A stretch of 64,000 nucleotides of DNA, from positions 672,001 to 736,000 of the forward strand of contig JBMNJT010000002.1 in the NCBI GenBank assembly GCA_050951805.1, read 5' to 3'. This document shows positions 1 to 4,688 of this stretch, in pieces. The first letter of the stretch is position 1. Each line of letters begins with the position of its first letter. The notes under the pieces are model-generated. The model saw nothing but the letters and a program-made list of their open reading frames with translations, made no database searches and was not told where the DNA came from. Both the position numbers and the translations under genes were made by a program. The stretch is from Bacillota bacterium (GTDB lineage: Bacteria; Bacillota; DTU025).

Positions 1-1429
1 CGGCTCGTGAGATGATGAATGGTCGAGTTTTAGGCAGGAGCCTGCGGAATGCTTCCTGTGTAGCCTCGCTCATGAGGTTGCCATAAGCATTATGGACGTA
101 GGCGTGAGCCACCTCCTCTCCTCGAGAGCCGTGGAGAGCATCTTCGTCCATCGTTTTGCTTTCTGTGTCGAAGTTAGACGGTTCATTCATGTCATTCCAT
201 ATGCCCCGCACTCCTGCATCGAAAAGGGCGGAATGGTTCTCGGCCCACCAGGAGCGCACGTCGGCCCGGGCAAAATCGGGGTATGAGACTGTTCCGGGCC
301 ACACTGTTCCCTTGTAATCTTTTCCGTCGGCCTTTTTGACGAAATATCGATTGGCTCGGCCTTTATCGTAAACAGAATAATCGGGATCAACCTTGACTCC
401 GGGATCGACTATGGCGACTACTTTGAAGCCCATGTCGGAAAGCTGAGAAATGAGCTCTTTGGGATCCGGAAAGTCTTCTGGCTCAAAAGTGAATACTCGA
501 AAACCGTCCATGTAATCGATGTCAAAGTATATGGCATCGCAAGGAATATCTGCTTCCCTCAATCGTTTGGCGACCTCCAGAACTTGGCTGTCAGGGCAGT
601 AGCTGAACCTGCACTGGTGGTAGCCTAATGCCCACAGAGGCGGCAACTTCATGTAGCCGGTCAGTGCCGCGTAGCCTCGGACTACGTCTGGTATGCTAGG
701 GCCTGCGAAGAAGTAGTAGTCCAGCTTCTTTTGTGACGTTCCGAACCAGTATTCGCCCTCTGGCACTTCGGGAATACCTGTAGGCTGAGGCGGAATCTTG
801 GAGCTGTTCAACATGGGATGGGGTTTGCCCAGGTTAAATGTGGACCTTGCTGCTGTGTCCATGAACAGGCCGTAGGCGGATTCGCCGGAGAAAGCTATGA
901 AGAATGGGATAGATATGTAAAGTGGGTCTGTGCCCGGCGTGTACGGGCAGTTGTCGGTGTTCCAAAGGGTCATGGCCGTGCCCCGCTTGTCAAGGCCGCC
1001 TGTCCGTTCCCCAAACCCATAGAAGTGAGTATGAGGATGGAAGGACTTGTAGCACCCTGCGCCAAGTTCATCCCAGCCCATTCCTCGGGGGGCGCTGTCG
1101 CTGCAAATCAGTGCTCCGTCCGGGTTGTAAAATGCAATTCTAAGAGGGTCTTTTGAGATGTTGATGATGACTGCAGGCGTCGAAATGGCCATTGATTCGG
1201 GAGTGTCCTCGATGCTCACTTGGGGATTAGGCCATTGTCGCTCTATTACGGAAAAGGATCCTGGAAGCCGGGGATGGGCTGGTTCAAGCAAAGTCATGCT
1301 CACTCGCACGAGGTCGTCGGCGATGACAGATACATCCACGCGCGAATCCAGGGTTTCCATAGAGACTTGATTGTCGCCGATGTGCAGGTTGAGAACCCGG
1401 CCGAGTGGGGTGAAACCTTTGTGTGACAT
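1..1429 (-). CDS. Glycoside hydrolase family 31 (alpha-glucosidase-like), runs off the left edge
   Basis: Not in the ORF track because it is truncated. ATG at 1429 with GGAGGA SD. In-frame motifs: HFYGFGERTGGLDKRG, PLYISIPFF, IVDPGVK, VWPG and catalytic GIWNDMNEP. Confidence 0.93.
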   Translation of the reverse strand, partial: MSHKGFTPLGRVLNLHIGDNQVSMETLDSRVDVSVIADDLVRVSMTLLEPAHPRLPGSFSVIERQWPNPQVSIEDTPESMAISTPAVIINISKDPLRIAFYNPDGALICSDSAPRGMGWDELGAGCYKSFHPHTHFYGFGERTGGLDKRGTAMTLWNTDNCPYTPGTDPLYISIPFFIAFSGESAYGLFMDTAARSTFNLGKPHPMLNSSKIPPQPTGIPEVPEGEYWFGTSQKKLDYYFFAGPSIPDVVRGYAALTGYMKLPPLWALGYHQCRFSYCPDSQVLEVAKRLREADIPCDAIYFDIDYMDGFRVFTFEPEDFPDPKELISQLSDMGFKVVAIVDPGVKVDPDYSVYDKGRANRYFVKKADGKDYKGTVWPGTVSYPDFARADVRSWWAENHSALFDAGVRGIWNDMNEPSNFDTESKTMDEDALHGSRGEEVAHAYVHNAYGNLMSEATQEAFRRLLPKTRPFIISRA

Positions 1430-1695
1430 TTTGTGATCCTCCATGCAAAATCTGTGGCATTAGAGCGTTTTGGCTAATGACATTTGCGTAGTTCTAGACC
1501 GATCTCCAATACCCTCCCGGGTGTGCAAGTGGGCCAGTGTCCAAGTATGGGGTTGATTGGAGCGATGACGGACTACAAGGTAGTGAAGGGGTGTATCAGC
1601 GGCCAAACAGGGAGAGGGCATAGCAGGTAAAGTTGCGCCTTTTAACGGGGCTTTTATTGCCCTCCCTTGCAGCGGAGATCGCATTCGGAATTTGA

Positions 1696-2736
1696 TTAGA
1701 CTATGAGGTCGATCTGCTCCATGGTGCCGACGGTCTTGTTTTGGCGGACATAAAGTCCCATGCGGGCCAACTCTCCTACAGGGCGGTTGGCGCTGTTTTT
1801 CATCTGGAATTGGGCGCCCACGGAACCAAGATATATGGCTCCGATTCCTGCTTCGGCTAAGGATACGAGGGGTTCATCGCCTGGATTGCCTCCAGTCCAG
1901 ATATACAACTGGGTCCAGGCCGGGTCGCGTTCATCGAGCCATCTGTTGCCGTCCGAGTCGAGCTCGGCCAGTTCATTCATGCCGTTTCCGGTCGACGGGC
2001 CGAATAGCTCGGTTCCGTCGTTTACTATACCATCGCCGTTTCTGTCGAGAACGAGGAAACCGCTGCCTCGGCGGAGTCCCGGGATCATCTCTGTCTTGCC
2101 GTCCGCATTCAAATCGAACTCGAACAGTTCATCGGAGAGCTGGGCGGCTTCGCCGTCGAGATTTACGATGATGGGATCGACTTTCCTGCCATTTTGGATA
2201 TGAATCGACGTTGCGCTGTATGCTGATTCTTCGTGGCGCATCGAAAGGCTAAGGGAGAACTTTATTTGCTCGCCGTCCTCAGTGGTTATCCAGCCCTCTG
2301 CTTCGAAGGACATGTACTGGAAATCGTGGTATGAATACTCCCTGTCATACTCAATGCTCCATTCGGGCTCCGGCATGGACTGGGGAGTCTGGGTTTGGCG
2401 GCTTCTTACTACTTCGGAAAGCTCCATTGTCTCAATCTTGATACCTGTTAACAGTTCTATGATCCGCTTAATTGTGCGGATCTTCGGATCGTTGGAGGCT
2501 TCGTCCGTGGGAATCCCTTTCAGCGCCTGCGACTTGTCGGTTGACATGGAGTCGTCTGCTCGAGCCAGAGCGGCGCGGGCACTATCGGATATGCTGACAT
2601 GGTCACGAACCAAACTGGTCGCTGCCGATGGGCGGGTTTCGGGGCCTATCCGCACCCGAACTCTTTCCGACACGCTCTCTTGTCGCATTCGCGCATACCG
2701 GGAAGACATCGATATCGTCGAGTCTCTTACCAACAC
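1696..2736 (-). CDS. Hypothetical protein with C-terminal Ca2+-binding FrpC self-processing-module-like domain (DPIIVNLDG...)
   Basis: Start moved to GTG 2736 (AGGGGG SD, downstream of the sigma-28 promoter). Motifs DPIIVNLDG, FDLNADG, LVLDRNGDGIVNDGTELFG, LAELDSDGN, LYIW. Confidence 0.8.
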   Translation of the reverse strand: MLVRDSTISMSSRYARMRQESVSERVRVRIGPETRPSAATSLVRDHVSISDSARAALARADDSMSTDKSQALKGIPTDEASNDPKIRTIKRIIELLTGIKIETMELSEVVRSRQTQTPQSMPEPEWSIEYDREYSYHDFQYMSFEAEGWITTEDGEQIKFSLSLSMRHEESAYSATSIHIQNGRKVDPIIVNLDGEAAQLSDELFEFDLNADGKTEMIPGLRRGSGFLVLDRNGDGIVNDGTELFGPSTGNGMNELAELDSDGNRWLDERDPAWTQLYIWTGGNPGDEPLVSLAEAGIGAIYLGSVGAQFQMKNSANRPVGELARMGLYVRQNKTVGTMEQIDLIV

Positions 2737-2779
2737 TATGGCACACCCCCTAATGCGCGTGAAAGATATCTTTATCATG

Positions 2780-2807
2780 TTATCGGCATGTTGCGCCGTG
2801 ATCTTAG
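2780..2807 (-). promoter_or_regulatory. Sigma-28 (SigD/FliA) promoter
   Basis: Minus strand reads CTAAG-N15-GCCGATAA, matching the TAAA-N15-GCCGATAA consensus with an exact -10 and exact spacing. Confidence 0.8.
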
Positions 2808-2976
2808 CTCTGTAAAACTTGCAGGCCAAGAGCGCGTTTCGGTTCAGGACAGACACGCGAGGGCATCAATCATTGCTAGTAACCGTCAGGTTTGCTGCTC
2901 TCAGCCTGTTGGGCTGCATGTTCTCTGTTCCGAGGCCGGACTGCAACTAGTCAAATGTGGTCCGTCTTCGAGTGCA

Positions 2977-4688
2977 CAGAAGTTCCGCATGCCGTAGACT
3001 GTGAGGAGTTCGGAAGTACTGCATGATACTGGCCGGGGACGATTACCAGTGTTCTAGGGACTTTCGAAAATGATGTCGTTCAAGTGCTACGATTGCAACT
3101 TATCAGAAGAGCAATATGAGGGGGTAATTCCCTGATTGGAGATAGAAAGAATCTCCGCACCTAAGGTCGAAGTTGTTCGACATTCAACCCAGCAAGTTAA
3201 AACAAAGGTGCGGGGAAGATGAATAGACTAAAGCAATTTGTTGATTACGCAAACAAGGTGTTTGGGCTGCATGAGTTCGCTACGGGATGTCGTGACTCAA
3301 GAGTGAACCCACAGTATCCTTGTGCAACCATTATAGCACTTTTTGTCGCCTCCATTGCAGCTAGAGTGGGCAGTTTGTACCAGATCGAACGCATGGGAAA
3401 GAGCGGCGAGCTCGACAGGTTTATACATACCCGGGAAAAGCCTAGCGCTGATACCTTGGGACGCTGGCTGGCAGTCGCCGACTACAGCGGATTCAGATCC
3501 TATAACGGCAGCATCGTCCAAAAGGCGAGGAGGAACAAGGTTCACGCATATGGGACTATCTGCGGGTGGCGGGTTGCCGCGATAGACGGCACGGAGACCT
3601 TTTGCACCCAGAGCCCGACGGCCGAGGCGCTCAAATGGTCCAAGCGTACGCTGTCAAACGGAGCGGTCGAATATTACGAACGTGCAGCGGTGCTGTCCTA
3701 CGTAGGTGCTCACCCTCACCTGATCTTGGACATTGAGCGCATCGAGCCCGGGGAGGGTGAGGTTACGGCGGCAATTCGGCTCTTGGGGAAGGCTCAGCAT
3801 CGCAACTGGCGATATTGCGACATGATATGCGCGGATGCCCTGTATGCCCAGGCGCCGTTCATAAACGCCGTAAGCGCCCTTGGCAAGTGGATCATCATAA
3901 AGTTGAAACAGGACAACTACCACCTGGTACGCGACATGGATGGGCTCGTGGCCGATCGCTCCCCAGATGTGGAGCTTGTGGGGATAACACCGAAAGGCGA
4001 ACCCATCCCGATCAACCATGGGGTGACCTACAGCGTAGAGATATGGGATGAAGAAGGCTTCACAAGCTGGGATGGCGTAGATCGTCCGCTGCGGTGCCTG
4101 AAGGTCGTTGAAACCAAGATTACGACGTGCCGTGGCGAAGTCGTCAAGGTTGAGCCGACAGTATACCATATCGTAACGACCGCTCCCCAAAGCATTGTGA
4201 ATGCGGCAATCGTCTGGCAGATAATGCACCGTCGCTGGGATATCGAGAACTCGATCTTCAACGACCTCAAGCAGAACTGGGGCTTTGATCACTGCTACAC
4301 GCACGACATTAACGGTATACAGACGATGTATGCCTTGTTCTGCATCGTCTTCAACCTGATGATGCTGTTCGCCTACAGGAACCTGAAAGATGCTCCTGGA
4401 AGAGGCGTAACGCTGAAAGAACTGGCAAGACAGATGCTAGTAGGGATGGAAACGCTATGCCAGCCCATAACTGAGTTGCTCCCGAGAGCCAGCCCTGGTT
4501 GAACAAGCGGCAAGTTGGCGAGGTAGACTGGGAGAACCTATGGAAGACGATCTTCGGTCCCCCATAACAGCGGATTTGGGGGAAAGGGGGATGTATCAGC
4601 GCAATTGGGCCTGGGGTTTATTGCTATACACCATGCGGCATCTGCATGCCGTATCCTGCCAGGCCGAAACGCATATGCGGAATTCCTG
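2977..4688 (+). mobile_element. Intact insertion sequence (DDE_Tnp_1-type, IS4/ISAs1-like; family not resolved), 1712 bp
   Basis: Imperfect 14-bp terminal inverted repeats CAGAAGTTCCGCAT / ATGCGGAATTCCTG (12/14). 9-bp direct repeat TCGAGTGCA at 2968-2976 and 4689-4697. Confidence 0.9.
3219..4502 (+). CDS. DDE transposase
   Basis: Motifs AAIDGT, ICADALY and [14 protein letters not shown]; lies within the TIR/TSD-bounded element. Confidence 0.92.

Follow-up and report, generated by a model that had tools for sequence, protein, structure and literature searches.

The gene described here lies on the minus strand of a 64,000-nucleotide stretch (the window) of a Bacillota bacterium genome, corresponding to positions 672,001 to 736,000 of contig JBMNJT010000002.1 in assembly GCA_050951805.1. 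It encodes a 346-residue protein predicted to end in a self-processing module (SPM) of the kind known from Neisseria FrpC, and it is preceded by a putative sigma-28-type promoter that recurs upstream of its homologues. The open frame extends over window 1696..2856. Within it, an in-frame GTG at 2736 gives a coding sequence at 1696..2736 (346 amino acids plus stop), with the residues encoded by 1699-2736 and the TAA stop at 1698-1696. A ribosome-binding site, AGGGGG, was located at 2745..2750 (minus strand), 8 nucleotides (nt) ahead of the GTG, and GGAGG- or GGGGG-type sites occupy the equivalent spot in 20 relatives from the same phylum. The N-termini of the homologues share a conserved M-K/R-I-x-x-S-x-x-x-M-x-S pattern and align with residue 1 of this reading. 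Since the homologues begin at the same point as GTG 2736, we take 346 residues to be the right length. An earlier reading made from the sequence only (the sequence-only reading) had described this frame, an Asp187-Pro188 pair at 2178-2173 and a series of motifs behind it, all of which we located in the sequence as stated.

The public record of a near-identical protein from a metagenome-assembled genome (99% identity, 'hypothetical protein', Bacillota bacterium) starts at GTG 2856 and comprises 386 residues. Its extension corresponds to 40 codons at window 2737-2856 (minus strand) and encloses the sigma-28 promoter together with the ribosome-binding site. Because both elements fall inside the extension and the homologues begin at GTG 2736, translation probably starts 40 codons downstream of the annotated position. 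Profile searches do not support the name 'VCBS repeat-containing protein' of some public records either. As a candidate VCBS / FG-GAP repeat protein, the sequence matched FG-GAP_3 with an E-value of 2.8 (9.1 bits against a cut-off of 26.9); seven of 29 homologues matched the same family at E <= 1 (best E 0.035), and these weak matches sit on the EF-hand-like loops. The public annotation is corrected here in both its start codon and this name.

The protein has no signal peptide or hydrophobic segment by hydropathy, given that the highest 19-residue hydropathy is only 1.47 and the first 40 residues are hydrophilic. The GG.G.D nonapeptide motif of RTX repeats is absent from the 346 residues, which agrees with the sequence-only reading on both counts, and so is cysteine. 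No model in Pfam or NCBIfam matched the protein over cut-off, the Pfam copy that was scanned lacking PF26745 and PF28292.

The SPM comprises residues 188-346, encoded by 1699..2175 (minus strand), and forms the C-terminal end of the protein. A phmmer search against all PDB chains returned eight matches at E <= 10, of which two were the FrpC SPM (6sjw_A, 6.2e-9; 6sjx_A, 2.4e-8), spanning residues 189-340, and the other six had E >= 0.2. An AlphaFold2 model built from 29 homologues showed predicted local distance difference test (pLDDT) values mostly of 80-95 across residues 188-346. Foldseek matched this model to 6sjx (E 1.5e-10, TM 0.72 by target length) and 6sjw (4.5e-10), with nothing beyond these two entries under 1e-3 in the PDB. 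Using VIA-align against 48,161 representative chains, 6sjw was superposed with a Z of 19.4 and a root-mean-square deviation of 2.4 Å over 146 of the 159 residues (model 188..346), while the second-best row for the whole model had a Z of 5.3. Both structures were released in 2020. As this postdates what we take to be the training cut-off of the AlphaFold2 weights, the fold match should be independent of training.

In precomputed Pfam annotation, PF26745 (named 'SPM' in Pfam 38.1) was assigned to the near-identical public record and to all 120 homologues listed, and PF28292 ('DUF8379') to 16 of these 120. The sequence-only reading had named an FrpC-like module and had proposed a structural comparison of residues 187-346 with the FrpC SPM. 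This comparison yielded the match described above, and residues 188-346 are confirmed, at the level of sequence and of modelled fold, as an FrpC-type SPM that is diverged yet clearly homologous. Separately, one genome of the same phylum (G128) matched the SPM part only of the profile, at C44:933-1412 and C38:3608-3985, in 693- and 1303-residue frames. Judging from these matches, the module is also present in other, longer architectures within the phylum.

At the N-terminal edge of the SPM lies Asp187-Pro188 (2173..2178, minus strand; GAT at 2178-2176, CCC at 2175-2173), the predicted scissile bond. It aligns with Asp414-Pro415 of FrpC, at residue 1 of chain 6sjw. Both residues are invariant among 29 aligned homologues whose identity to the query ranges from 33 to 76%. 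We also listed 80 loci out of 510 confirmed relatives among 600 candidate stretches, 67 of them with a recognisable start, and Asp-Pro was found in all 67 (63 by pattern, 4 by eye). In 60 of the 63, the Asp is followed by 158-160 residues, where the protein terminates.

FrpC residue numbers were taken from PMC7078468 and mapped onto the protein through the phmmer alignment. A first EF-hand-like calcium loop, Asp231-Glu243 (D-x-N-x-D-G-x5-E; 2008..2046, minus strand), aligns with FrpC D462-E474, and its residues are conserved in nearly all of the 29 homologues (D231 29, N233 28, D235 26, G236 28, E243 29). A second such loop, Asp260-Asp271 (1924..1959, minus strand), aligns with D499-D511; here D260, D262, W266, D268 and D271 are kept in 29/29 and N264 in 28/29. 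The port residues of FrpC, L475, F476, G477 and G491, correspond to L244, F245, G246 and G252 and are kept in 28-29 of the 29. Finally, Asp343 (1708..1710, minus strand; D in 28/29, N in 1/29) is most likely the equivalent of FrpC Asp579, an assignment that involves a 2-residue shift past the end of the phmmer alignment.

In the homologue loci (L012-L091), Lys or Arg is frequent within three positions before the Asp-Pro, in a G-D-A-x-K-x-D-P pattern; the protein described here carries Lys185. A lysine two residues from the anhydride could act as an internal nucleophile competitor or as a tuner of reactivity.

The FrpC module itself has been characterized. Without calcium the SPM is largely disordered, and calcium binding leads to its folding (PMC7846742, PMC7078468). 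Folding strains the Asp-Pro bond, and an aspartic anhydride forms that reacts with lysine amines or with water (PMC7078468, PMC7846742, PMC12538545). The FrpC SPM has four calcium sites and a transient D414/D478/D579 site, and it requires far more calcium than the cytosol offers, the levels being <100 nM inside the cell against >100 uM outside (PMC7078468). Every SPM homologue tested in one panel cleaved (PMC12538545).

Ahead of the ribosome-binding site we identified a sigma-28-type promoter, with a -35 element TAAG at 2803..2806 (minus strand; CTAAG from 2807) followed after 15 nt by a -10 element GCCGATAA at 2780..2787 (minus strand), equivalents of which stand upstream of the homologues. 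The distance from the -10 box to the GTG is 43 nt. The -35 element stands in the GCTAA[AG] context also seen at the promoters of flagellin and flgM in this genome; these read GCTAAA-N16-GCCGATA(G/C), and the gene described here GCTAAG-N15-GCCGATAA. In the 2.75-Mb genome the pattern CTAA[AG]-N15-16-GCCGATA has three matches, namely this gene, flgM and flagellin; the pattern was written post hoc from these three sites and shuffled genomes average 1.35 matches, so the count is weak alone. The shorter GCCGATA[AT] alone occurs 297 times. Because the three-match count by itself proves little, the promoter evidence rests on the positions and on the conservation among homologues.

This conservation was measured at the 67 homologue loci with a score out of 12, given by the best match to T[ACT]AA-N14-16-GCCG[AT]TAA in the 120 nt upstream. 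A score of at least 11 was reached at 33/67 loci, compared with 9/1340 random windows from the same loci and 8/676 stretches upstream of other open reading frames (ORFs) of at least 150 residues. At a threshold of 10 the counts were 47/67, 68/1340 and 34/676, and for the full score of 12 they were 19/67, 5/1340 and 1/676. The loci scoring at least 11 come from several phyla and exceed the controls, which stand at about 1%, by about 50-fold. The end of the motif usually lies 30-45 nt ahead of the start codon. Twenty further relatives from the same phylum, fetched separately, gave a score of at least 10 in 16 cases and of at least 11 in 10, and the three closest relatives in the phylum have perfect TAAA or TTAA ... 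GCCGATAA motifs. The sequence-only reading had placed a sigma-28 promoter ~45 nt upstream and had proposed a search of homologues for it. The promoter was found close to that position, and its conservation among homologues takes it beyond chance. On this basis, the gene carries a predicted sigma-28-type promoter that is conserved across phyla, from which we infer sigma-28 dependence in vivo.

Elsewhere in the genome, at C3:118168 (plus strand), a perfect TAAA-N15-GCCGATAA lies 63 nt ahead of a 619-residue ORF with a hydrophobic N-terminus, possibly a further member of the regulon that encodes a chemoreceptor. The sequence TAAACGCAATCCCGGGCGACCCGATAA occurs in two identical copies 6 kb apart (C3:23047 and C3:29041, plus strand). 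Behind each stands an ORF of 303 or 312 residues, the two ORFs being near-identical, and the arrangement looks like a duplicated element.

Public sequencing data were also consulted. Part of the stretch is contained in 22 public runs, of which 12 are recorded as RNA, and four RNA-library runs from three studies were mapped to window 1200-3400, all in the form of contigs that carry no strand, level or true ends. Contigs on the gene were present in all four. In run X3, a 749-letter contig covers 2033-2759 and then continues into adapter letters, and in run X2, from the same study, a contig covers 1200-2730 before adapter letters follow. Measured from the -10 box, the two ends lie 21 and 50 nt further downstream. 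Since RNA libraries can hold DNA, these ends hint only weakly at transcripts starting close to the promoter. None of the contigs from the four runs covers 2760-2975 upstream of the promoter, a gap that counts as no evidence. Downstream of the gene, a terminator-like hairpin followed by a run of T is read on the plus strand at window 1637-1651, 45 nt past the stop of the gene; read on the minus strand, this stem is not followed by a run of T. The contig of run X2 spans the gene and the GH31 gene downstream of it.

We then examined the co-occurrence of the family with flagella. The genome itself (2.75 Mb in 8 contigs, 97% complete) contains flagellin, FlhA, FliA and FlgM, with FliA scoring over the TIGR02479 cut-off. 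Among 401 genomes evenly sampled from its phylum, the family was present in 43 (33 of 277 genera) and FlhA in 305 (76%); all 43 carriers had FlhA, and none of the 96 FlhA-negative genomes had the family. A second sample comprised 251 genomes of the proteobacterial order around Aromatoleum toluolicum, including an unpublished non-carrier (G610), and was searched with the profile of the N-terminal domain. Here, 41 genomes carried the family and 169 (67%) carried FlhA, which was present in 41/41 carriers, and the family was found in 0/82 FlhA-negative genomes. Five more carriers, belonging to other groups, likewise all had FlhA. A naive hypergeometric calculation gives 3.6e-6 for the phylum and 1.4e-8 for the proteobacterial order, both made too small by kinship. 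Two results that the sequence-only reading had named as refuting, a genome without fliA or flagellar genes and homologues lacking the promoter, were thus looked for and not obtained, with fliA, flhA, flagellin and flgM in the genome itself and FlhA in 84/84 carriers of the two samples.

The part of the protein preceding the SPM is an N-terminal domain of 187 residues (residues 1-187; 2176..2736, minus strand), which in some members carries DUF8379. Modelled alone with AlphaFold2, it reached a mean pLDDT of 79.9. The model contains three β-strands of 25-28 residues (3-30, 126-152 and 157-181) with pLDDT of 92-98 and helices at 51-60, 84-97 and 106-111, the elements being connected by flexible linkers. 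Toward their ends the strands alternate between hydrophobic and polar residues, and their centers are polar on both faces. Comparison of the whole model and of the domain alone with 48,161 chains gave no solved fold for the domain, the best Z values of 5.3 and 5.9 lying within what counts as noise in VIA-align (Z < 8). Pore-like hairpins (C8, gasdermin, perforin, PlyB) were considered and rejected, the best of these scores being the Z of 5.9; membrane hairpins do not fit because the strand middles are polar on both faces. A predicted homodimer of the domain had a median score of 0.26 against a mark of 0.42 and is evidence neither way.

Out of 1.84 billion cluster representatives, a profile built from 43 N-terminal domains matched 2624 at E <= 1e-3. 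Of these, 1640 had E <= 1e-10, which corresponds to at least 1640 clusters at 50% identity, and 567 had E <= 1e-30. Throughout the matches, the domain begins at residue 1. Of the best 150, 121 are 335-404 residues long (the domain plus about 159 residues), and the other 29 show a continuous spread of 187-317 residues that looks like truncation at contig ends. The family occurs in Bacillota, Pseudomonadota, Nitrospirota, Desulfobacterota and further groups. Cultured carriers include Aromatoleum toluolicum T, Hydrogenophaga defluvii, an Undibacterium species and Desulfosediminicola flagellatus.

Putting these observations together, we consider it somewhat better than an even chance that the gene encodes a protein of the late flagellar regulon that is exported by the flagellar type III apparatus, cleaves itself when triggered by calcium and releases or links its N-terminal fragment. 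The sigma-28 (FliA/SigD) RNA polymerase would transcribe the single gene from TAAG-N15-GCCGATAA after completion of the hook-basal body. At the low calcium level of the cytoplasm, the SPM would remain unfolded, and such disorder, by analogy with FrpC, would suit passage through a narrow export channel. The most likely way out for the protein would be the flagellar type III export apparatus, which would take it as a late substrate, since it has no Sec, Tat or type I signal and since no other export machine is both shared by monoderm and diderm carriers and present in all those examined. A C-terminal type I signal is absent because the SPM ends the protein and leaves no room for one; among the genomes sampled, the family was found only in those that are FlhA-positive. 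Outside the cell, calcium would bind to the two conserved EF-hand loops, the SPM would fold and strain the Asp187-Pro188 bond, and the bond would break through a cyclic anhydride on Asp187. The 187-residue β-rich N-terminal fragment would then be released with a reactive C-terminal Asp, and its anhydride would either react with a nearby lysine, forming a covalent isopeptide link to a docked partner, or be hydrolyzed.

The sequence-only reading had proposed a stand-alone, flagellum-exported protein that autocleaves outside the cell and glues its N-terminal domain to flagellin, surfaces or partner cells. The SPM, the stand-alone architecture and the association with flagella stood up; export and gluing stay at the level of prediction. 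Flagellar export, calcium-triggered cleavage and the cross-linking target are what we infer from the sequence features above. The specific idea that the N-terminal domain becomes covalently bound to a lysine of the filament, the cap, the cell's own surface or a substrate, making the protein an accessory of the flagellum, seems to us rather doubtful. If true, it would make this protein the first flagellar one to be 'self-gluing' through isopeptide formation, and monoderm as well as diderm bacteria would have a natural clip-and-link system apart from the RTX toxins.

Several observations weigh against the proposed export and cleavage. With regard to flagella, a large share of all genomes in either sample has FlhA (76% and 67%), and the FHIPEP model by which it is detected also detects the injectisome protein SctV, which is why the observed co-occurrence is suggestive rather than exclusive. 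The promoter score admits TCAA and TTAA at -35 and GCCGTTAA at -10, variants that were added post hoc, with the controls scored identically. The nearest ORFs, 58 upstream and 59 downstream, include no recurring flagellar structural gene, and the gene lies in no flagellar cluster at the loci examined. The commonest upstream neighbors are ferrochelatase (8 of 58) and thioredoxin (7), and the commonest downstream neighbor is a methyl-accepting chemotaxis protein (MCP) signalling domain (11 of 59), with FliW, MotA and DUF6470 each occurring once. As the neighborhood shows no recurring flagellar gene, the flagellar link rests on the promoter and the co-occurrence. Late-class genes such as those of MCPs are usually scattered, single-gene units. 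No flagellar export signal is recognisable from the sequence, a class of signal for which no sequence consensus exists, and our literature search found no experiment on any family member.

With regard to cleavage, one calcium site of FrpC, an incomplete one, is not kept, its D419/D421/D423/G424 with D456 corresponding to N192/D194/E196/A197 with S225. FrpC D478 is replaced by Pro247 (P in 22/29, A in 5/29, D in none), and the third EF loop (FrpC D521-E532) is shortened, with Gly in place of its first Asp in the 346-residue protein. Because some FrpC calcium ligands are not kept, it is uncertain whether the chemistry is FrpC-like in full. That Asp-Pro is invariant at the module edge argues that the predicted cleavage is retained, though the details of its calcium dependence may differ.

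The same data could be explained without export by the flagellum. The protein would then be sigma-28-controlled and self-cleaving, and would either serve as an intracellular calcium switch tied to motility, in which rising calcium would detach the N-terminal domain, or leave the cell by lysis, in vesicles or by an unrecognised route. Consistent with this, an export signal cannot be demonstrated from the sequence, many sigma-28 genes, including those for MCPs, motor and chemotaxis proteins, are established as encoding products that are not exported, and MCP is the commonest recurring neighbor. We nevertheless regard this explanation as unlikely. The calcium need of the FrpC SPM is far over the cytosolic level (PMC7078468), and a 159-residue domain kept unfolded in the cell would be purposeless. 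Moreover, the reactive anhydride chemistry suits an extracellular role, and the flagellar export gate is present in every carrier examined.

A second explanation, which we hold to be distinctly less probable still, is that the SPM fold is kept without cleavage, as a calcium-binding structural or adhesive domain in which Asp-Pro is retained for folding. The changes in the fourth calcium site, at the FrpC Asp478 position and in the third EF loop would fit such a role, and in FrpC D478A strongly reduces cleavage (PMC7078468). Furthermore, experimental cleavage is known only for SPMs from RTX proteins of Neisseria and relatives (PMC7078468, PMC12538545). Against this, FrpC D478N still cleaves, so the carboxylate at this position is dispensable (PMC7078468). 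Kuban et al. 2020 report that D579A kills cleavage and that D579N stays active (PMC7078468), and the Asp579 counterpart, with D in 28 and N in 1 of the homologues, matches this tolerance. Asp-Pro itself is kept at the domain edge in 29/29 and 67/67 cases, in sequences that are otherwise only 33-40% identical.

Finally, a coincidental promoter match in a gene unrelated to flagella is highly improbable: the gene does lie between GH31 glycosidase and DDE transposase genes with no flagellar genes around, and both the 297 occurrences of GCCGATA[AT] and the shuffle mean of 1.35 for the narrow pattern allow for chance matches, but in homologues from several phyla the motif keeps its distance from the start codon, at a frequency about 50 times that of controls, and all 84 carriers in the two samples are FlhA-positive.

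Of the two neighbors, the GH31 glycosidase gene occupies window 2-1444 (minus strand), and the DDE transposase gene (PF01609, E 5e-10) occupies 3219-4502 (plus strand), 480 nt upstream of our gene and on the other strand. Beyond the transposase gene follow rpmE, tdk, a DUF1385 gene, prfA and prmC. A genome of the same genus (G360, 97% complete) contains FlhA and FlgM and gave no match to the family. Given this genome and the adjoining transposase gene, the gene may be patchily distributed or mobile.

The assignment of the SPM is in itself already known, as databases label some members 'SPM domain-containing protein'. In the literature we found no link of the SPM to sigma-28 or flagella, with the proviso that the supplementary homologue panel of PMC12538545 may hold non-RTX cases, and no mention of DUF8379. 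If the proposed function is confirmed, a member with new chemistry would join the late flagellar regulon, and the flagellum would have a further case of use as a secretion route. The family would also provide many short natural SPM variants for protein engineering, the clip-and-link module being the basis of the NeissLock protein-coupling technology.

Among known systems, the closest in concept are the Campylobacter FlaC, Cia and Fed proteins and Yersinia YplA, which, without being flagellar themselves, are expressed together with the flagellar apparatus and exported through it. No sequence relationship to them is expected. These proteins share with the proposed system a sigma-28-class gene outside flagellar clusters, a product without a classical signal and the flagellum as the route. 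We know of none among them with a self-cleaving, anhydride-forming module.

FlgM, the anti-sigma-28 factor that leaves the cell by way of the flagellum, offers a second comparison. In the same genome, its gene has a sigma-28 promoter of the same form, and FlgM is likewise small, lacks a signal peptide and is partly disordered. Both proteins have an N-terminal M-K-I and a short D-x-V-x-I-S-x-x-A/G motif. Unlike FlgM, the protein described here has no recognisable sigma-28-binding C-terminal helices. Membership of the FlgM family (PF04316) was rejected, there being no profile match at E <= 10 for the protein, at E <= 1 for the 29 homologues or for the protein in the genome scan; hhalign against FlgM aligned 14 columns only, with a probability of 39.8%. 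The motif itself, D-x-V-x-I-S-x-x-A at window 2566-2607 (residues 44-57), is family-wide and resembles the start of the FlgM domain in the FlgM of the same genome. It is too weak for homology and could be a shared export or chaperone-recognition element.

The FrpC SPM is the nearest structural relative. The two modules are about 30% identical over their whole length and agree in their fold (predicted here; Z 19.4), one described as unique among solved structures. Both begin with the Asp-Pro and carry an Asp close to the C-terminal end; the two canonical EF-hand loops and the port residues, L-F-G as well as the G matching FrpC G491, are also retained. Changed here are the third EF loop, the position of Asp478 and the fourth calcium site. 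The FrpC/ApxIVA proteins of the clip-and-link RTX class are longer than 1000 residues and have GGXGXDXXX repeats and a C-terminal type I signal, whereas the protein described here has 346 residues and neither feature. We therefore rejected its membership of that class, since it is short, lacks GG.G.D and ends with the last SPM strand. The N-terminal cargo also differs, being a conserved domain of 187 residues, the carriers include monoderm Bacillota, and a predicted sigma-28 promoter takes the place of the iron regulation of FrpC. The clip-and-link module has hitherto been treated as a speciality of giant RTX proteins from a few Gram-negative pathogens; here it ends the proteins of a compact, roughly 350-residue family that, among the genomes sampled, is found only in flagellated ones.

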